Below, piece after piece: positions 793 through 8,525 of a stretch of DNA of 64,000 nt. The position numbers and the translations under genes are program-made. The notes beneath the pieces were generated by a model. The model saw only the letters and a program-made list of their open reading frames with translations, was not told the DNA's origin and searched no databases. Within the stretch, counting starts at the first letter, position 1. Every line of letters starts with the position of its first letter. The stretch is from Frankiaceae bacterium (GTDB lineage Bacteria; Actinomycetota; Actinomycetes; Mycobacteriales; SCTD01): assembly GCA_016650445.1 (NCBI GenBank), contig JAENVS010000002.1, positions 10,980 to 74,979 of the forward strand, in the 5' to 3' direction.

Positions 793-1323
793 GTGGCTGA
801 GCTGTGGGGGCTCCTCGCGGATGAGGACCGGCTTCGGGTGTTCTCGGCCATCGCACTCGGTGCCCGGTCGGTGCCCGACATCGCCGACCACACCGGTATG
901 GACCCGCGCACCGTCGTGAAGGCGTTGCAGCGGCTGGAGTCGGGCGGCGTCGTGCGCACCGACGGGCCCGAGTGGGAGCTGTGCCGCGACGTCATCGCCG
1001 CCGAGGCTCGGCGTACGTCCAAGTCGTTCGAGCCGTACGACGAGGAGGGCCTCGCGCCGCAGCAAGCCTCCGTGCTGCGTGCGTTCCTGCGCGACGGGAG
1101 ACTGGCGTCGATCCCGTCGGTCCGCTCCAAGCGGCTCGTCGTCCTGGACCACATCGCGAAGGTCTTCGAGGTCGGCGTCCGTTACAAGGAGCGAGACGTG
1201 GATGCCCTGCTTCGGGCGTTCCACGACGACTACGCGGCCTTGCGCCGGTATCTCGTCGACGAGGGCTTTATGTCGAGGGAGCACGCCGAGTACTGGCGGA
1301 CCGGAGGCAGTGTCAGGGTCTGA
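793..1323 (+). CDS. HTH / DUF2087-like putative transcriptional regulator
   Basis: GTG start. N-terminal winged-helix-like segment (RVFSAIALGARSVPDIADHTGMDPRTVVKALQRLESGGVV). C-terminal part resembles DUF2087 (KRLVVLDHIAKVFEVGVRYKERDVDALL..YAALRRYLVDEGFMSRE). Confidence 0.55.
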   Translation: MAELWGLLADEDRLRVFSAIALGARSVPDIADHTGMDPRTVVKALQRLESGGVVRTDGPEWELCRDVIAAEARRTSKSFEPYDEEGLAPQQASVLRAFLRDGRLASIPSVRSKRLVVLDHIAKVFEVGVRYKERDVDALLRAFHDDYAALRRYLVDEGFMSREHAEYWRTGGSVRV

Positions 1324-1333
1324 ATATGGTGGT

Positions 1334-1357
1334 CCCGGATTGGGCGAGAAATCCGGG
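1334..1357 (+). terminator. Stem-loop downstream of the DUF2087-like gene
   Basis: CCCGGATT-gggcgaga-AATCCGGG is an 8-bp perfect stem starting 11 nt after the stop codon. There is no U-tract, which is common in actinobacteria. Confidence 0.35.
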
Positions 1358-1376
1358 TGATCCGTCCACGGGATTG

Positions 1377-1580
1377 GTCCGATCGGGTGATGCGCGGCCA
1401 ATCGGCTGCGCACGAGGCTTTCCCGTGCAACGGCACGAAATCTGCCGTCCGGCCACCAGGCCGGCGGGCAGGGGGCGAAGATCCGCGCGGTCCTCACCGA
1501 CACCGCACCGGTGCACGGAGGCAGACGGTCGCCTAGACCGGCGGGGAGCCAACGGCGAGCCCGACTTGTCCGGCTGGACG
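1377..1580 (+). promoter_or_regulatory. Conserved structured 5' leader, copy A (upstream of LPFTG surface-protein gene 1)
   Basis: Shares long identical blocks with 3038-3238: GTCCGA-n-CGGGTGATGCGCGGCCA, CTGCCGTCCGGCC, CACCGACACC, GGTGCACGGAGG-n-AGACGGTCGCCTAGACCG, GGGGAGCCA, GGCGAGCCCGA, TGTCCGG. Hairpins at 1430-1448, 1449-1464 and 1526-1540. Confidence 0.55.
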
Positions 1581-1616
1581 AGCGTCGCGGCGCTCCCGCC
1601 TGGATGGACGACGACA

Positions 1617-2852
1617 GTGACCCCTCGTACGCGCCATGTCCCGACAACCAGCACAGTTCACGGGTTTCGGGCACTCGTCGGCGCGGTGGCGCTCCTTGTG
1701 CCGCTGACGCTGTTGTTGTCAGCTTCGCCGGCCGCGGCCGCGGTGCTCACCACGCACGACAAAGTCGGGATCTGCCATGCAATCGGCGGTCCCAAGGCGT
1801 ACGTGACGAACAGCCCGAACATCGACAGCATCGTCAAGGGAACCGGTCACGGCGGCCACGTCGACGACATCATTCCGGCGTTCGACTACGACCTGGGCGC
1901 GGGCGTCAAGCACTACGCAGGCCAGAACGTCGCGCTGATCAGCATCCTGAACAACAACTGCGGTCTGCCCGCGACTGCGCGGGCGGTGGCCCCGACTGTC
2001 GTTCAGTCGCAGTGCGTCAACAACGCGGGCACCGTGCCCACGTACACGATCGTCCCGGTCGCCGGGGTGGTCTACAGCGTCGGCGGCACCCCGGTGACGG
2101 GTACGAACAACGGCGCGGCGGGCAGCGCGATCACCGTCGTGGCAACGGCTGCGTCCGCAGCCATCACCTTGACGGGGAGCACGAGCTTCCCGATCACCTT
2201 CGCCGCGACCCCGACTCCGTGCGGCAGCACCCCCGCAGGCCCAGGACCGGGGAGCACAGGCGATGGGGGCGGCCCGGCACTGGACGGCAACCTCGGTGTG
2301 ACCAAGACGGGGACAGCCACGGCGCAGCCGGACGACGAGCTCGTGTGGAGCATCGTCGTGACCAACACGTCGGGTGCGGCTGCTACCGGCTTCACGGTCG
2401 CCGACAGGCTGGCTCCGGGGCTGTCGTTCAGCCAGGTTCAGGGCAACGACTTCGTCTGCACGCTCGCGGGCCCGAACATCAGCTGCGGTTACACCGGGTC
2501 GCTGGCGGTAGGCGCGAGCGCGACGATCTCGGTGCGGGCCCTCCTCGACGCCGGCTACAAGCCGGATGCGGTCACGAACACCGCTGTTCTGACTCCGGGC
2601 CGGCCGGACACCGACAGCGCGGACAACAGCTCCACAGCGATCACCGCTGTCACGCACCCCGCTGAGGAGTTCACTGGGGGCGGCGGCGGTGCGGTTGTGG
2701 CCCCGCCGGCTGAGACGGCGGGCGGCGGCGCGGCCCTGCCGTTCACGGGGTCGAGCACCGCGCGACTCGCCCAAGCAGCGCTGGCACTCCTGCTGCTCGG
2801 CGGATACCTGCAGGTCCTCGGTCGTCGACGCCGCCCGGAGGTCATCGGGTAG
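1617..2852 (+). CDS. Sortase-anchored surface protein, DUF11-type repeat, LPFTG sorting signal
   Basis: GTG 1617 gives a signal peptide (RALVGAVALLVPLTLLLSASPAAAA). There is a DUF11-like repeat (GVTKTGTATAQPDDELVWSIVVTNTSG..). The C-terminus is LPFTG plus a hydrophobic stretch plus RRRR. The upstream part of the 972..2852 ORF is judged a GC artefact. Confidence 0.8.
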   Translation: MTPRTRHVPTTSTVHGFRALVGAVALLVPLTLLLSASPAAAAVLTTHDKVGICHAIGGPKAYVTNSPNIDSIVKGTGHGGHVDDIIPAFDYDLGAGVKHYAGQNVALISILNNNCGLPATARAVAPTVVQSQCVNNAGTVPTYTIVPVAGVVYSVGGTPVTGTNNGAAGSAITVVATAASAAITLTGSTSFPITFAATPTPCGSTPAGPGPGSTGDGGGPALDGNLGVTKTGTATAQPDDELVWSIVVTNTSGAAATGFTVADRLAPGLSFSQVQGNDFVCTLAGPNISCGYTGSLAVGASATISVRALLDAGYKPDAVTNTAVLTPGRPDTDSADNSSTAITAVTHPAEEFTGGGGGAVVAPPAETAGGGAALPFTGSSTARLAQAALALLLLGGYLQVLGRRRRPEVIG

Positions 2853-2876
2853 TTCGTCGCCGCCGGCGCGGCCCAG

Positions 2877-2906
2877 GCCCCCTGCCCTGCACCGAGGGGA
2901 GGGGGC
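2877..2906 (+). terminator. Imperfect GC-rich stem-loop after surface-protein gene 1
   Basis: GCCCCCTgCCC-tgcaccga-GGGgAGGGGGC forms 10 bp with one G/G mismatch, 25 nt after the stop codon. Confidence 0.35.
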
Positions 2907-3037
2907 TGTGGCCTGCCCGGAGCACCTTCATGATCCCGCGGAACCAATTTCTCACTCTGAGTATCTCGAGCCGTGCGTTCCGTCACTCTCTGAGGTCGAT
3001 TCGGCCCGGAAAGATAGGAAGTACGCACGCGAAGATT

Positions 3038-3238
3038 GTCCGAACGGGTGATGCGCGGCCATCCGCCGTGGAGAACGCTCAACGGGCACGGCAAAACCTG
3101 CCGTCCGGCCGAGCGATCGGCTGGCGGGTGGGGGGCACGGATCCGAGTGGTCCACACCGACACCCACAAGGTGCACGGAGGAAGACGGTCGCCTAGACCG
3201 CTCGGGGAGCCAGTGGCGAGCCCGATCTGTCCGGTACG
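3038..3238 (+). promoter_or_regulatory. Conserved structured 5' leader, copy B (upstream of LPFTG surface-protein gene 2)
   Basis: Collinear with 1377-1580. Core block 3170-3200 matches 1510-1540 at 30/31 positions. Hairpins at 3088-3104, 3105-3124 (an extended version of the copy-A stem) and 3186-3200. Distance to the start codon is the same as in copy A. Confidence 0.55.
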
Positions 3239-3276
3239 ACCAAAGCGCCGCTGCGCTTCGCCGGACGGATGTCGCC

Positions 3277-5661
3277 GTGAACGTTCTCCCTCAGTCCCTC
3301 GCGACCGGCCTGCGACGCCGTGCTGCGCGGCGGGGCGCTGCGCTTGCCCTGGCCGTCGCCGTAGTCGCCCTGTTCGGTGGGGTGCCAGCCTCGGCCGGTG
3401 GCAGCGGGACGGTCAAGGTCGACGGTGACGACGTCGGCGGTCCCGGCAACGCGCCGCACCAGGCGTGCGGGCTGCAGGTCTCCCTGTACGACTTCGACGC
3501 GGGCGCGCACAACGCGGTGGTTACGTGGACCGCGAAGGACACGGGTCTGCCGATCGTCACCACCCCCGCGAGCGGCGCGACCAACCCCTACCCGTTTAAC
3601 GCGAGCGGCAACTCCGAGCTCAACATCTCCCTCCCCTTTGCCCTGCACACCGCCGGTCTCACGTTCCACGCCGGCCTCGGGTACCACGTCACGCTGGACG
3701 TGAGCGTCGACGGCGTCGGCAAGAGCAAGGTCATCTACGTCGGCGCCTGCTCGACGGACGTGGCCCTGTCCAAGACGACGTCGACTCCGACCGTCGCAGT
3801 CGGCGACGCGGTGCACTACACGCTGACCGTCACCAACAACGGCCCGCTGAACGGCGTGGGCTTCCAGGTCACCGACACGCTGCCGGCCGGGTTCACCCTG
3901 ACCTCCATCACGGCCCCCCTGTGGGACTGCGTCGGCACGGGTGTCGACTGCACGTACAAGCCCTCGAGTCCGCCGGTCCTGGTGGGCTCGTCGACGTCCT
4001 TCACCGTCAACGGCACGGCAACGGCCGCGGGCATCCCGTCCATGACGAACAACGCGCACCTTGACCCGCAGGACACGGACAACACCAACAACGCGGCCTC
4101 GGTGGTCGTCAACGTGAACGGCCTCGCGACCTCGCAGGCCGTGACCTTCGCGGACTCGGCCTGTGTGGCCAACCAGTCGACGGCGAACACCTACACGATC
4201 CCTGACCCGATCCCGACCGGTGTGGTCTACAAGATCGGTGCCGCCACCCAGACCGCGGGGCAGCACGCCGCCAGCCCCGGTCTGCTCACGGTCGACGTGA
4301 CTGCGGCTCCCGGCTACACCCTGTCTGGACTGGCGCAGTACACCCACACCTTCCCGGCCGTGGCGACCGGCTGCGAAGCCCCCACGGCGGCGGTGACGAA
4401 GGCCAACAACGCGAACGGGGATGAGACCTTCAGCATCTCGGAGGAGGCGACCTCGGTCTCACAGCCCGTGCAGTTCAAGCTGACGGTCACCAACACCAGC
4501 CCCTACGCGATCGACGTCAACCCGTCGATCTCCGACCAGGTGTGGGTAGGTGCGGAGCCCACGGAGGGCCCCAACCCCACGTCGTACAACTGCCTGCCGG
4601 CGATCACCAACCTGGCGCCCACGGTCAGTGCTTCCTGCGTGTTCACCGCGGACAGCTACTCGCCGGAGGACGGCGTGACCAAGTCCAACCGGGCGACGGT
4701 CACGTTGACCAAGTTCGTTCCTGTGGACGTTGACGTTCCGGGCCTGCGGCGCTTCAGGGCAGCGGCGCTGGTCGCGCCGTTCACCGCCGTCAGCAACGTC
4801 TCGACGGTGAAGACGGTGAAGCCCGTGATCCGCGTCGTCCTGCCGACCCCGGCTGCGGCGGTTGCCCCGACGGCGTCGCAGTCGACGTGCACCAACGGCA
4901 CCGCAACGACTCCCTCGTTCACCGTCCCGACGACGACGGGTGTGGTCTACACGCCGGCCACCGGCGGGACCGCGACGCCGGGCTCGACGGTGACCGTGAC
5001 GGCTGCTGCGGCTCCCGGCTACGTCCTGAGCGGACCGAGCAGCTTCCCGCTGGTCTTCGCAGCGCTGGCGGACTGCAGCATCACGGACAACGTCGGCGTC
5101 AGCAAGACCGGCCCCGGCACCGCACAGCCGGGTGACGAACTGGTCTACGCGATCGACGTGACCAACGTGCGGGGTACGCCGGCCACCGCCTTCACGGTCG
5201 TCGACACCCTGCCCGCGGGGCTGTCGTTCAGCTCCGCCGTCGGCTCCGGCTTCGCCTGCACCAACGCCGCCCAGGTCATCACGTGCGTGTACGGCGGTCC
5301 GGCGCTCACCGTCGGTCAGTCGGCCACCATCTCGGTCCGGGCACTGCTCGACAGCACCTTCAGCGGGACGTCGGTCGCCAACACGGCGGTCGTCGACCCG
5401 GGCCGGGCCGACTCCGACGCCGGTGACAACAGCGCGACCGCGACCACTGCGGTCGTCCCGCTGCCGATCTCCGGCGGTGGAGGCGGCGCCGTGGAGGAGC
5501 CCGCCGCCTCACCGTCGCCCGAGCCCGTCGCCGGTGGTGGAGGGGCCCTGCCGTTCACCGGCATCGACGGCGCCCAGCTCCTGCAGCTCGGAGTCTCGCT
5601 CCTGCTGGCCGGCCTGTTCGTGTCGCTGGCCACCCGCCGGCGGCGGACCAGCGCGGAGTAG
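3277..5661 (+). CDS. Large sortase-anchored surface protein with DUF11-type repeats, LPFTG sorting signal
   Basis: GTG start with signal peptide (RRGAALALAVAVVALFGGVPASA). DUF11-like repeats (VALSKTTSTPTVAVGDAVHYTLTVTNNG; GVSKTGPGTAQPGDELVYAIDVTN). Repeated GVVY..APGY.LSG modules are shared with gene 1. C-terminus is LPFTG plus TM plus RRRR. Confidence 0.85.
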   Translation: MNVLPQSLATGLRRRAARRGAALALAVAVVALFGGVPASAGGSGTVKVDGDDVGGPGNAPHQACGLQVSLYDFDAGAHNAVVTWTAKDTGLPIVTTPASGATNPYPFNASGNSELNISLPFALHTAGLTFHAGLGYHVTLDVSVDGVGKSKVIYVGACSTDVALSKTTSTPTVAVGDAVHYTLTVTNNGPLNGVGFQVTDTLPAGFTLTSITAPLWDCVGTGVDCTYKPSSPPVLVGSSTSFTVNGTATAAGIPSMTNNAHLDPQDTDNTNNAASVVVNVNGLATSQAVTFADSACVANQSTANTYTIPDPIPTGVVYKIGAATQTAGQHAASPGLLTVDVTAAPGYTLSGLAQYTHTFPAVATGCEAPTAAVTKANNANGDETFSISEEATSVSQPVQFKLTVTNTSPYAIDVNPSISDQVWVGAEPTEGPNPTSYNCLPAITNLAPTVSASCVFTADSYSPEDGVTKSNRATVTLTKFVPVDVDVPGLRRFRAAALVAPFTAVSNVSTVKTVKPVIRVVLPTPAAAVAPTASQSTCTNGTATTPSFTVPTTTGVVYTPATGGTATPGSTVTVTAAAAPGYVLSGPSSFPLVFAALADCSITDNVGVSKTGPGTAQPGDELVYAIDVTNVRGTPATAFTVVDTLPAGLSFSSAVGSGFACTNAAQVITCVYGGPALTVGQSATISVRALLDSTFSGTSVANTAVVDPGRADSDAGDNSATATTAVVPLPISGGGGGAVEEPAASPSPEPVAGGGGALPFTGIDGAQLLQLGVSLLLAGLFVSLATRRRRTSAE

Positions 5662-5677
5662 CCGCGCAGCTCCCGGA

Positions 5678-5703
5678 GGCCGCGTCCCACACAGGACGCG
5701 GCC
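5678..5703 (+). terminator. Intrinsic-terminator-like hairpin after surface-protein gene 2
   Basis: GGCCGCGTCC-cacaca-GGACGCGGCC is a perfect 10-bp stem followed by TTCGGTGT, 17 nt after the stop. Confidence 0.55.
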
Positions 5704-5836
5704 TTCGGTGTACGACGGGGATGCTCACGCCCGCGAAAATGGTCCTCCTGTAGTCCGAACGGGCCATGACGGCGGGCGCCCGTCTCGCGCACTCTGACAG
5801 CGGCAACAAAACGGACAGTTCAGTCAGGAGTACATC

Positions 5837-6286
5837 GTGGCCACATCAGCCCCACAGCGCCGCCTCGCCCACGCCGTCGTGGCGCTGGCCGTCGCCGGCC
5901 CTGCCGTGCTGCTCGGCGGGGTGGCTTGGGCCGACCCCACGCCGCCGCCGGACGCTGTCACGGCGACGGACACCGCCGCGGCCACCGAGGCGCCGGTCGT
6001 CCAGCCGAGCGTCGGCACCTGGATCATCGGCGGCACCTTGCTGGAGGGCTCCGCGGCCAAGCCGGCGGCCAAGCCGGCCGCCAAGCCCGTCGCCAAGCCG
6101 GCCGCCGTCGCGCCGGCCCGCACCTCCACCCGCACGGGGGCGCGCACGCAGCGGGCGACCAGCCAGCCGACCGCGCTGGCTTTCACCGGCGGCCACGTCG
6201 AGGCGCTCCTGCCTGCCGGCATCAGCCTGCTCGTCGGCGGTGTCGCGCTGATGCTCGCCGCCCGCCCCCGCCGCGCCGTCGCCTAG
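5837..6286 (+). CDS. Small secreted Ala/Pro-rich protein with LAFTG sortase (class E-like) sorting signal
   Basis: AGGAG lies 7 nt before the GTG. Signal peptide (LAHAVVALAVAGPAVLLGGVAWA), an AKPA repeat, and LAFTG plus TM plus RPRR at the C-terminus. Confidence 0.7.
   Translation: MATSAPQRRLAHAVVALAVAGPAVLLGGVAWADPTPPPDAVTATDTAAATEAPVVQPSVGTWIIGGTLLEGSAAKPAAKPAAKPVAKPAAVAPARTSTRTGARTQRATSQPTALAFTGGHVEALLPAGISLLVGGVALMLAARPRRAVA
6056..6103 (+). repeat. In-frame 12-nt tandem repeat (x4) encoding AKPA units
   Basis: GCCAAGCCGGCG / GCCAAGCCGGCC / GCCAAGCCCGTC / GCCAAGCCGGCC, read directly from the sequence. Confidence 0.85.
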
Positions 6287-7254
6287 GTCGCGCCTTCCGC
6301 GAGCGCGACCAGCAGCCTGCGCAACGAATCCAGTCTGGCCGCGCTGACCCCCACCTCGTCCAGGGCGCAGCCCGTTGTGCCCGGCAGGTGGCTGCACCCC
6401 GGCGGGCACCGCTCGGCGGCCACGGCGAGGTCAGGGAACGCCGCGAGCACCCGGGCCGGCGTCACCGCGCCCAGGCCGAACGACCGGATCCCAGGGGTGT
6501 CGATAACGGTGCCGCCCCCCGGCAGCTCCAGCGCGATCACGGACGACGAGATGTGCCGGCCCTTGCCGATCCCGCTGACGTCCCCCACCGCGCGCTGCGC
6601 GTCCGGGACGAGCTGGTTGACGAGCGTCGACTTGCCGACCCCCGACTGCCCGAACAGCACGCTGGTCCGTCCCGCGAGCCGGGCCTTCAGCTCCGGGACC
6701 CCGGTCGCCGGTCCCGTGACGACGGCCTCCACACCCAGCGGCCGGTAGAGCGCGAGCAGCTCCTCGGGTGACGCGAGGTCGGACTTCGTCAGGCACAGCA
6801 GCGGCTCCAGACCTCCGTCGTACGCCGCGACGAGGCAGCGGTCCACGAGCCGAGGCCGCGGTGGAGGGTCGGCGAGCGCGGTGACGACGACGAGCAGGTC
6901 GGCGTTGGCGACGACGGCGCGCTCGACCGGGTCGCTGTCGTCGGGTGTGCGCCGCAGCAGGCTGCTGCGCGGCTCGATCCGCACGATCCGGCCGAGCGCA
7001 TCCGGACCGCCGGCGATGTCGCCGACCACCCCGACCCGGTCGCCGACGACGACCGCGCGCCGCCCGAGCTCGCGGGCCCGGACCGACGTGATGATCGAGC
7101 CGTCCGCGAGCCGGAGCCGGTAGCGACCGCGGTCGACGGTGACGACCGTCGCGGCGACGGCCTCCTCGTGGGCAGGGCGGATGCGCGTGCGCGGACGCGA
7201 GCTGCGCCCGGGGCGGACCCGGACGTCGTCCTCGTCCAGCTCGCGCGCGGTCAC
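6283..7254 (-). CDS. rsgA: Ribosome small-subunit-dependent GTPase A
   Basis: GTG start overlaps the aroA stop (GTGA). Permuted GTPase motifs TKSDL, GQSGVGKSTLVN and DTPG. C-terminal Cys/His zinc cluster (CPPGCSHLPGTTGC). Confidence 0.9.
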   Translation of the reverse strand: MTARELDEDDVRVRPGRSSRPRTRIRPAHEEAVAATVVTVDRGRYRLRLADGSIITSVRARELGRRAVVVGDRVGVVGDIAGGPDALGRIVRIEPRSSLLRRTPDDSDPVERAVVANADLLVVVTALADPPPRPRLVDRCLVAAYDGGLEPLLCLTKSDLASPEELLALYRPLGVEAVVTGPATGVPELKARLAGRTSVLFGQSGVGKSTLVNQLVPDAQRAVGDVSGIGKGRHISSSVIALELPGGGTVIDTPGIRSFGLGAVTPARVLAAFPDLAVAAERCPPGCSHLPGTTGCALDEVGVSAARLDSLRRLLVALAEGAT

Positions 7255-8525
7255 TCGCCGCCCAGCATGCGGTGCCAGGAGCCCGCGAAGTCCGGCACGG
7301 TCTTGCGCGTCGTGGCGATGTTCTCGACCTCGATGGCGTCCACGCCCAGGCCCAGCACGGCCCAGGCCATCGCGAGCCGGTGGTCGTCGTAGCTGTTCAT
7401 GACGCCACCCGTGAGCGGCCTGGGCCGCACCTCGAGGCCGTCGCTTCGCTCCCGGACGTCCCCACCGCGGGCGTTGATCTCGGTCGCGAGTGCGGCGAGG
7501 CGGTCGGTCTCCTGAAGCCTGATGTGGGCGATGCCGCGCAGGCGGCTCGGTCCGTCGGCGAGCGCGGCCAGCGCGGTGATCACGGTGGCGAGCTCGGGGG
7601 CGTCCCGCAGGTCGGTGTCGATCCCGTGCAGACCCGCTCCGGCCGACACGGTGAGGGAGGTGTCGTCCCTGGAGATCTCGGCGCCCATCGCGGCGAGCAC
7701 ATCGGGCAGCACAGCACCGGGCTGGGCGGTGTGCCGCGGCCATCCCCGCACCGTGACGGAGCCGCCGGCCACGAGCGCCGCCGCGAGGTAGGCCGCCGCT
7801 GTCGACAGGTCGGGCTCGACCGCGGCGTCCCGCGGCACGAGGGGCCCCGGCTGGACCGTCCACTCTCCGGGAGTCGCGTCGTCGACGAGCGCACCTGCAG
7901 CGCGCAGCGCCTCGACGGTCATGGCCAGGTGCGGCGCGCTGGGCAGCGGCGGGCCGTCGTGGCGCACGCGGATGCCGTCGTCGTACCGAGGTGCGCTGAG
8001 CAGGAGCCCGCTGACCAGCTGGCTGGACTCGGAGGCGTCCACGACGACGGCCCCGCCACGCAGGCCCCCGCCGCCCCGGACGGTCACGGGGAGCGCATCC
8101 ACCCGGTCCAGGTCGGCGCCGAGGTCGCGCAGGGCGGCCAGCAGCGGTCCGAGCGGTCGCAGCCGCACCCGGGGGTCGCCGTCGAACCGCACGGTGCCCT
8201 TCGCGAGGGTCGCGACCGGCGGCAGGAAGCGCGCGACCGTGCCCGCATTGCCCACGTCGACGTGGTCGGCTGCCGGCAGCAGCGGGCCGCCCACGCCGTC
8301 GACCACCCAGTCGGTGCCGTCGTCGGCGACCCCGACGCCGAGCGCGCGCAGGCCGGCTGCCATGAGCTCGGTGTCGCGGCTGCGCAGCGGCCGGCGAACG
8401 ACGGAGCGCCCGGGGGTGAGGGCGGCGAGGACGAGCGCGCGGTTGGTCACGCTCTTGGACCCCGGCAGCTCCACCACCGCGGCGAGCGGGTGCGTCGCGC
8501 GCGGTGCAGGCCACAGATCGGTCAC
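7251..8525 (-). CDS. aroA: 3-phosphoshikimate 1-carboxyvinyltransferase (EPSP synthase)
   Basis: LPGSKSVTNRAL, NAGTVARFL, SSQLVSGLLL and DHRLAMA motifs. The GTG at 8525 (GGGAG upstream) is preferred. An in-frame ATG at 8579 is an alternative start. Confidence 0.9.
   Translation of the reverse strand: MTDLWPAPRATHPLAAVVELPGSKSVTNRALVLAALTPGRSVVRRPLRSRDTELMAAGLRALGVGVADDGTDWVVDGVGGPLLPAADHVDVGNAGTVARFLPPVATLAKGTVRFDGDPRVRLRPLGPLLAALRDLGADLDRVDALPVTVRGGGGLRGGAVVVDASESSQLVSGLLLSAPRYDDGIRVRHDGPPLPSAPHLAMTVEALRAAGALVDDATPGEWTVQPGPLVPRDAAVEPDLSTAAAYLAAALVAGGSVTVRGWPRHTAQPGAVLPDVLAAMGAEISRDDTSLTVSAGAGLHGIDTDLRDAPELATVITALAALADGPSRLRGIAHIRLQETDRLAALATEINARGGDVRERSDGLEVRPRPLTGGVMNSYDDHRLAMAWAVLGLGVDAIEVENIATTRKTVPDFAGSWHRMLGGE

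Follow-up and report, generated by a model that had tools for sequence, protein, structure and literature searches.

The window analysed here is a stretch of 64,000 nucleotides (nt) of high-GC actinobacterial DNA from a Frankiaceae bacterium (contig JAENVS010000002.1, positions 10,980 to 74,979; the coordinates below are those of the window). It carries two diverged homologous copies of a leader, A (1377-1616) and B (3038-3276), both intergenic and each lying on the plus strand 5' of an open reading frame (ORF) that starts with GTG. What kind of element is this repeated leader, and how could it act on the genes that follow it? The leader is a fresh instance of an already catalogued RNA element. 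We consider it probable that both copies are riboswitches of the c-di-GMP-II-GAG family, a variant of class II of the cyclic di-GMP (c-di-GMP) riboswitches (RF03169, clan CL00127), placed upstream of genes for secreted, sortase-anchored (LPFTG) DUF11 proteins and proposed to turn translation on when the ligand is bound.

Family assignment of the two leaders

The Rfam scan of the whole window returned exactly two matches at the gathering threshold, both to the RF03169 c-di-GMP-II-GAG aptamer, and no other family was found in the window even at E <= 1. The match in copy B reached 50.5 bits (E = 5.7e-07) and the one in copy A 41.2 bits, the curated gathering score being 40 bits; both covered all the positions of the model, from 1 to 86. 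Two overlapping matches, to other clan members, scored lower than RF03169 and were suppressed, the assignment being made by model score. The canonical c-di-GMP-II family (RF01786) was considered as the identity of the copies and rejected, RF03169 being their best match within the clan. Among the related loci scanned with Rfam, 19 of 20 contained RF03169. The initial annotation of this DNA had described a structured cis-regulatory leader in two copies under structural selection, and this description holds; the catalogued aptamer with its pseudoknot, at the core of the leader, had been missed.

The copies share with the RF03169 model the helices P1, P2a and P2b, the kink-turn-like GA bulge, the loop strand CGGUCGCC, the sequence GGCGAGnCCG and the position in a 5' untranslated region. 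They differ from it in an insert of about 30 nt in the P2b loop, which includes a hairpin (P3), and in the P2b of copy A, where a 1-nt deletion in the 3' strand leaves a bulge. Two further hairpins (H1 and H2) and a 5' motif lie upstream of model position 1 and are not covered by it; these parts are partly explained below. The aptamer core, taken through GGCGAG, ends 56-57 nt 5' of the GTG starts in both window copies, and the spacing from core to start is 53-59 nt in most relatives.

The genes downstream are of one kind. Gene 1 (1617-2852, 411 amino acids) has one DUF11 domain and gene 2 (3277-5661, 794 amino acids) has two; both start with GTG and encode proteins with signal-peptide-like N-termini and C-termini formed by LPFTG, a hydrophobic stretch and RRRR, an ending that reads as a sortase-anchoring signal. 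Across the family, most of the complete ORFs that follow the leader encode proteins with a signal peptide and with LPFTG at the C-terminus; a few encode GT2-like glycosyltransferases. The motif scan of the window found no GGDEF genes and no sortase TLxTC genes.

This arrangement has known parallels. In Clostridioides difficile, the sortase substrates CD2831 and CD3246 are preceded by class II c-di-GMP riboswitches that work as ON switches (PMC11477304). These canonical switches belong to the same clan and have the same overall fold as the window copies, and they control sortase-anchored adhesin genes in the ON direction, as predicted here. In contrast, the window copies score higher with the GAG variant model than with other members of the clan, occur in high-GC Actinomycetota and not in Clostridia, and are predicted to sequester the ribosome-binding site instead of terminating transcription, while their binding of c-di-GMP is putative. 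Tandem c-di-GMP-II riboswitches also mostly precede genes for surface-anchor proteins (COG4932; PMC9481103). There, as in the window, repeated aptamers accompany surface-anchored protein genes, but they stand two or three to a leader, whereas the window has one for each of two paralogous genes. Doublets within a single leader do occur in relatives: in six of the related loci (designated here by L numbers: L018, L037, L042, L046, L047 and L051), two RF03169 aptamers lie about 27-30 nt apart, and L042 carries a pair of these doublets, placed before successive genes.

Structural conservation across related leaders

A search of the genome collection with the pattern of the conserved core gave 63 loci, of which about 50 are genuine family members, mostly from Frankiales, Mycobacteriales, Nakamurella and unclassified Actinomycetota metagenome-assembled genomes (MAGs); the nearest relatives of the window are Actinomycetota and Frankiales MAGs. 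Sixteen leaders, the two window copies included, are built like leader B throughout, with 5' motif, H1, H2, aptamer and expression platform, and a scan of metagenomes for the extended leader gave 4 loci only. The search patterns fixed CGGTCGCC...GGCGAG throughout, and ACGGCA...TGCCG as well in the case of the 16 leaders.

Judged from these alignments, P1, P2a, P2b, the inserted hairpin P3 and the upstream H2 are shown to be maintained by compensatory change in related genomes. Under the model of the ligand-bound state, pairing across the 16 leaders is 90.2%, against 34-41% when the partners are slid, and 15 pairs have changes on both sides. None of 500 shuffles matched any of the observed measures, so the shared structure anticipated in the initial annotation does exceed its shuffled controls. 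Most of the 39 distinct family sequences retain 9-10 of the 10 P2b pairs, with many compensatory changes; the arms of this helix covary as CCGGACGGTC/GACCGTCCGG, CCGGACCGTC/GATGGTCCGG, CCACGACGAT/GACGTCGTGG, CCGCGGCGGC/GCCGCTGCGG and others. For P1, with the family sequences parsed from P2b as anchor, duplexes of cognate strands have a mean of -11.86 kcal/mol, versus -10.21 kcal/mol for non-cognate ones, and the cognate value was attained in 0 of 5,000 permutations. Among the 16 leaders, two-sided changes occur at 2 pairs in P1 and at 2 in P2a.

The strand CGGUCGCC and GGCGAGnCCG form 8 complementary pairs in both window copies and in all the 16 leaders, both strands being fixed by the search pattern. 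On the family model, CGGUCGCC is the P2b-loop strand of a pseudoknot of the c-di-GMP-II fold, with GGCGAGnCCG as its downstream partner. The same region, CGGTC-GCCTA-GACCG (3186-3200), is identical in the two copies and had been taken for an invariant hairpin. The family does not support that hairpin: 12 of the 39 distinct sequences can form no more than 3-4 of its 5 pairs, and in those 12 the alternative P2b (CCGnnnGGTC/GACCnnnCGG) usually keeps 9-10 of 10. By this comparison, GACCG closes the 10-bp P2b, pairing with CGGUC at 3148-3152 and not with the adjacent CGGUC.

Upstream of the aptamer, H2 had been described as replaced by a longer helix in copy B, and the 16 leaders confirm it as a genuine covarying helix. 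Indeed, 5 of its 7 pairs are changed on both sides, despite a partly misregistered alignment, with arms such as CCGGCC/GGCCGG, CCGGCCGA/TCGGCTGG, GGTCGTCA/TGGCGACC, GGTCATCG/CGATGACC, GGTCACC/GGTGACC, GCCGCC/GGCGGC and GGCCGCGG/CCGCGGCC. A hairpin ending at most 3 nt from P1 is present in about 70% of all the family members. In H1, 5 of the 6 pairs never vary in the 16 leaders, partly through how these leaders were selected; the sole compensatory variant found, ACGGCU-GAUA-GGCCGU, is in the first leader copies of L008 (3700-3961) and L059 (2691-2950). These two copies are divergent extended leaders, which also have UGC/GCA instead of GGC/GCC in P2a and GGCCGAAGCGTGGCAAG as 5' motif, and they would be useful material for covariation tests.

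The comparison between the two window copies is coherent with this picture. Among 50 pairs in the helices of the family model, 38 are identical in both copies, 6 have one-sided changes that keep the pairing (mostly through G-U), 1 has a two-sided change that keeps it and 1 lies inside an indel. The remaining 4 are apparently broken: 3 of them fall in the platform hairpin, which MAFFT misregistered (by eye, GAGCG/CGCTC in A versus AAGCG/CGCTT in B is a double change from G-C to A-U), and 1 lies beside the 1-nt deletion in the P2b of copy A. Every clean substitution within helices preserves pairing, in agreement with the earlier remark that the differences tend to keep the hairpins. Paired columns differ in 15 of 99 cases and unpaired ones in 50 of 140, plus 19 gap columns.

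Outside the aptamer, the 5' motif GTCCGA(A/T)CGGGTGATGCGCGGCCA is 96% identical between copies, and the H1 stem is the same in both, with loops of 7 nt in A and 5 nt in B, as first reported. The spacer that follows the 5' motif has diverged in sequence and length, also as first reported (12 of 32 aligned bases differ, plus gaps). The purine run GGA(T/C)GGA stands as the ribosome-binding site, at the distances from GTG listed in Table 1 and not at the 8-9 nt given before; apart from this small error, the sequence details first reported all proved correct.

Table 1. Parts of the two leaders and their positions in the window
Feature	Copy	Position	Strand	Sequence or pairing	Remark
5' motif	B	3038-3061	+	GTCCGAACGGGTGATGCGCGGCCA	outside the aptamer; 96% identical to 1377-1400
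H1	B	3088-3104	+	ACGGCA-aaacc-TGCCGT	read from sequence
H2	B	3105-3124	+	CCGGCCGA-GCGA-TCGGCTGG	one G-U; directly abuts P1
Aptamer (RF03169)	B	3122-3236	+		Rfam match
P1	B	3125-3132 with 3226-3233	+		cognate versus non-cognate duplex test
P2a	B	3134-3136 with 3209-3211	+	GGC with GCC	
Kink-turn GA	B	3140-3141	+	GA	
P2b	B	3143-3152 with 3196-3205	+		family covariation
Inserted hairpin P3	B	3161-3173	+		
Pseudoknot	B	3186-3193 with 3215-3224	+	CGGTCGCC with GGCGAGCCCG	
Expression platform	B	3227-3268	+	P1 3' strand CTGTCCGG (3227-3234) with CCGGACGG (3261-3268)	
Platform inner hairpin	B	3242-3257	+	AAGCG-ccgctg-CGCTT	enclosed by the helix of P1 3' strand and Shine-Dalgarno
Shine-Dalgarno	B	3263-3269	+	GGACGGA	7 nt before GTG 3277-3279
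5' motif	A	1377-1400	+	GTCCGATCGGGTGATGCGCGGCCA	
H1	A	1430-1448	+	ACGGCA-cgaaatc-TGCCGT	
H2	A	1449-1464	+	CCGGCC-ACCA-GGCCGG	
Aptamer (RF03169)	A	1462-1575	+	P2b CCGCGCGGTC / GACCG-GCGG	Rfam match
Expression platform	A	1566-1619	+	P1 3' strand TTGTCCGGC; hairpin GAGCG-tcgcgg-CGCTC	
Shine-Dalgarno	A	1602-1608	+	GGATGGA	8 nt before GTG 1617

The predicted switch and its alternatives

Two segments of the leader are complementary to the P1 3' strand CUGUCCGG: the P1 5' strand and the ribosome-binding region CCGGACGGA. In copy B, the duplex of CUGUCCGG (3227-3234) and CCGGACGG (3261-3268) has an energy of -19.5 kcal/mol and encloses a variable hairpin, and the isolated platform folds as a long hairpin of -25.2 kcal/mol; most of the isolated platforms in the family adopt this same long hairpin. 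In copy A, the duplex of the P1 3' strand with the Shine-Dalgarno (SD) sequence, at -10.8 kcal/mol, contains a bulge. Across the family, the pairing of the P1 3' strand with the SD region has a cognate mean of -11.78 versus -10.08 kcal/mol for non-cognate partners (0 of 5,000 permutations), and subgroups covary as GUCCGG/CCGGAC, CCGUCGA/UCGACGG and GACCCGU/ACGGGUC.

In its simplest reading, this complementarity points to an ON switch acting on translation. As long as no ligand is bound, the ribosome-binding site would be held by the P1 3' strand in the long hairpin and translation would be off; with ligand bound, P1 and the pseudoknot would be locked, leaving the ribosome-binding site free and translation on.

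The same riboswitch could instead act on transcription elongation or termination, the hairpin after the aptamer being a terminator without U-tract, as in high-GC actinobacteria. The off-state hairpin is indeed long and GC-rich, with the energy given above for copy B, and the known class II c-di-GMP switches of C. difficile control transcription (PMC11477304). However, the ribosome-binding site, 7-8 nt from the start codon, is itself what forms the 3' arm of this hairpin, and the family members conserve the overlap and show covariation in it, as translational control predicts. Moreover, the only terminator-like site with a T-run between 1250 and 3400 is at 1251-1264, and none lies inside either leader. 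We therefore regard control of transcription as unlikely.

The translational switch may involve one more exchange of partners. The P1 5' strand has a further complement in the 3' arm of H1 (CCUGCCG), and their pairing is seen in the minimum free energy (MFE) structures of both window copies; the MFE of the full leader B contains both off-state helices, that of the P1 3' strand with the SD included. Over the stretch that begins with H1 and ends with the P1 5' strand, such an extended H2 is favoured in 15 of the 16 leaders, by 1.4-7.5 kcal/mol, and its pairs are kept in 88-100% of the sequences. Tentatively, the H1 3' arm may instead pair with the P1 5' strand in this leader subtype, extending H2. 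The off state would be a double lock, in which the H1 3' arm holds the P1 5' strand and the P1 3' strand holds the SD; in the on state H1 and P1 would form with the ligand, H1 forming only there. These constraints would explain the invariance of the H1 sequence. On a more speculative note, to which we give a minor share of our confidence, the ligand of this actinobacterial GAG-variant class may be a signalling nucleotide different from c-di-GMP, and sortase-anchored DUF11 adhesins would be turned on through this relay of five segments (H1 5' arm, H1 3' arm, P1 5' strand, P1 3' strand and ribosome-binding site), perhaps together with a protein operator in the 5' domain.

Several points weigh against the riboswitch explanation or parts of it. 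Copy A is only just above the Rfam threshold and its P2b is bulged; its MFE structure lacks the helix of the P1 3' strand with the SD, the 5' motif pairing with the SD region instead. Taken one sequence at a time, the MFE does not reach significance (z = -1.65 and -1.56). Part of the invariance of the pseudoknot strands and of H1 comes from the search patterns, which fixed them, and the significance of the shuffles and permutations is overstated, because the sequences are phylogenetically related. The relay, in turn, has one-sided changes only in the extended H2, whose pairing the divergent first leader copies in L008 and L059 lack.

The ligand may be presumed to be c-di-GMP or another signalling nucleotide related to it. 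Weinberg and colleagues reportedly proposed the class in 2017 (PNAS) as c-di-GMP-II riboswitches with an altered binding site that "might recognize different bacterial signaling molecules", and because it is said to be defined in this way, c-di-GMP is possibly not the ligand, a further point against the proposed identity. The text of PMC5737381 does not mention the motif. In three related loci, an ORF with a Nudix box (GGVDVDESLPAAAAREVLEETGW) ends about 50 nt 5' of the 5' motif (L039, about 7100-7460; L065, about 930-1290; L011, about 4470-4830), and a nucleotide hydrolase adjoining a nucleotide-type riboswitch may bear on the ligand.

The weakness of copy A, in score and in P2b, would also fit a fold that has been kept but binds no small molecule, either a degenerate riboswitch or a structured leader bound by a protein or small RNA, and we know of no ligand for the c-di-GMP-II-GAG binding-site variant class. 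Nevertheless, the unpaired core (GCACGGAG, CGGUCGCCUAGACC, GGGGAGCCA and GGCGAG) is highly conserved across many genomes, and so is the switching platform, a combination typical of ligand-binding aptamers. Loss of ligand binding thus appears to us quite improbable, less so only than the recombination discussed below is.

Upstream domain, duplication and genomic context

The 5' motif GTCCGA(A/T)CGGGTGATGCG lies 48-51 nt (mostly 49) before H1 in all the 16 leaders. Its exact core, TCCGAWCGGG, occurs three times in the 64 kb, each time 5' of one of three consecutive surface-protein genes; the third occurrence (5754-5763) precedes gene 3 (5837-6286), which has no aptamer. Since the upstream genes end just 24-56 nt 5' of the motif, the promoter must be near or within it. 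The motif probably lies close to the promoter, or else it is where the mRNA begins. It can also pair with the SD region, as seen in RNAalifold and in the copy A MFE, and could be an mRNA 5' end, an operator or an additional anti-SD element. In the stretch 5' of gene 3 (5753-5836), the motif reads GTCCGAACGGG, ACGC(A/C)CGCGAA(G/A)AT is common to this stretch and the region before leader B, and GUCCG could pair with CGGAC just 5' of AGGAG.

These observations raise the alternative that 3038-3104 (5' motif, spacer and H1) lies outside the RNA switch and works as DNA, as a promoter or operator for a transcription factor such as the adjacent protein with a helix-turn-helix (HTH) and DUF2087, which would give a dual control. 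The presence of the motif before the aptamer-less gene 3 and the promoter position imposed by the upstream gene ends are in its favour, as is H1, a near-invariant perfect palindrome while the neighbouring helices covary. Furthermore, the spacer between 5' motif and H1 in the subgroup II leaders contains GTCAC(G/T) direct repeats with a 10-nt period (three at about 215-245 in L009, and others in L008, L059 and L064), replaced by inverted GTGAT in L066 and L067; repeats of this kind, inverted in some leaders, suggest a site for a DNA-binding protein more than an RNA helix. The HTH-DUF2087 gene adjoins the leader in L035, in L057 and in the window, where it lies directly 5' of leader A (793-1323), but subgroup II loci lack it beside the leader.

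The 5' part matches no Rfam family: searched alone, it gave only chance-level matches (CyVA-1, E = 0.41; COG3860 RNA, E = 5.4), the latter being a weak, non-significant match of 9.4 bits over the H1 region (3056-3103), matching ...AAACCUGCC. On the other side, no sigma-70 promoter was detected in a scan of 1250-3400, and the pairing of H1 with the P1 5' strand supplies a reason at the RNA level for the conservation of H1, which moreover has one compensatory variant (A-U to U-G). Searching the 5' domain by eye revealed no consistent extracytoplasmic-function-type promoter (GAAC-N17 followed by a conserved -10), SigB/SigF-type GGGTA -10, BldD-like (TNAC-N5-GTNA) or MtrA-like boxes. A single helix 'P0' closing the 5' domain was considered and rejected, its register being inconsistent across leaders. 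We see a DNA operator as the less probable account of this domain, though a serious one, and it can be compatible with the riboswitch explanation. Between gene 1 and leader B there are two near-palindromes, CTCACTCTGAG (2951-2961) and GTCACTCTCTGAGG (2982-2995).

The two leaders are shown, by comparison of the sequences, to have arisen through tandem duplication of the entire unit of leader plus gene. Genes 1 and 2 have 47% amino-acid identity over 283 amino acids and on this measure are old paralogs, and the leaders are conserved at 82-96% in blocks, versus 74% for the best coding block; the aptamers of A and B have at best 82% identity over 82 nt. The number of units between the same flanking genes varies among species: two in the window, L002, L008 and L059, and one in L057, which like L002, the closest relative, has 84% nt identity. 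On this comparison, units are gained and lost over evolutionary time.

According to the initial annotation, the leader copies might serve chiefly as direct repeats for homologous recombination, deleting or amplifying gene 1 and giving copy-number or antigenic variation. Their direct orientation 1.66 kb apart, the variable number of units and the leader of L057, which resembles a mosaic of A-like and B-like segments, would agree with this. However, the longest perfect identity is 18 nt and the overall identity about 80% with indels, which falls short of what RecA usually needs to recombine efficiently. It is mainly the aptamer positions that are conserved, and the differences keep the helices, which points to selection on RNA and not to recent conversion. 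The two genes are old paralogs. The proposed check of the presence of gene 1 in orthologous loci, which here is a comparison at the level of species, gave a divided answer: L002 keeps both units, with a shorter gene 1, and L057 has a single one. The recombination reading is not supported, and we judge it the least probable of those considered.

The riboswitch units sit in a conserved setting. In many MAGs, an AurF-like di-iron gene and an ORF containing rsgA flank a variable island of LPFTG genes, composed of one to several riboswitch-controlled units; the flanks are at 1-756 and 6283-8514 in the window, and the synteny is found in L002, L006-L008, L011, L026, L035, L039, L041, L057, L059, L064, L065 and L067. 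Right after gene 2, the hairpin GGCCGCGTCC-cacaca-GGACGCGGCC followed by TTCGGTG (5675-5700) is likely a terminator separating gene 2 from gene 3.

Overall, an orphan-like riboswitch variant is linked here to a clear regulon, formed by LPFTG cell-wall-anchored proteins and a few glycosyltransferases, in Frankiales- and Mycobacteriales-like actinobacteria. The proposed switching model is concrete and testable, and the RNA constructs for ligand screening are defined. If the ligand is c-di-GMP, the control of adhesins at the RNA level would reach from Clostridia to high-GC Gram-positive bacteria; if it is another molecule, this would hint at a new signal controlling the surface architecture of these organisms.

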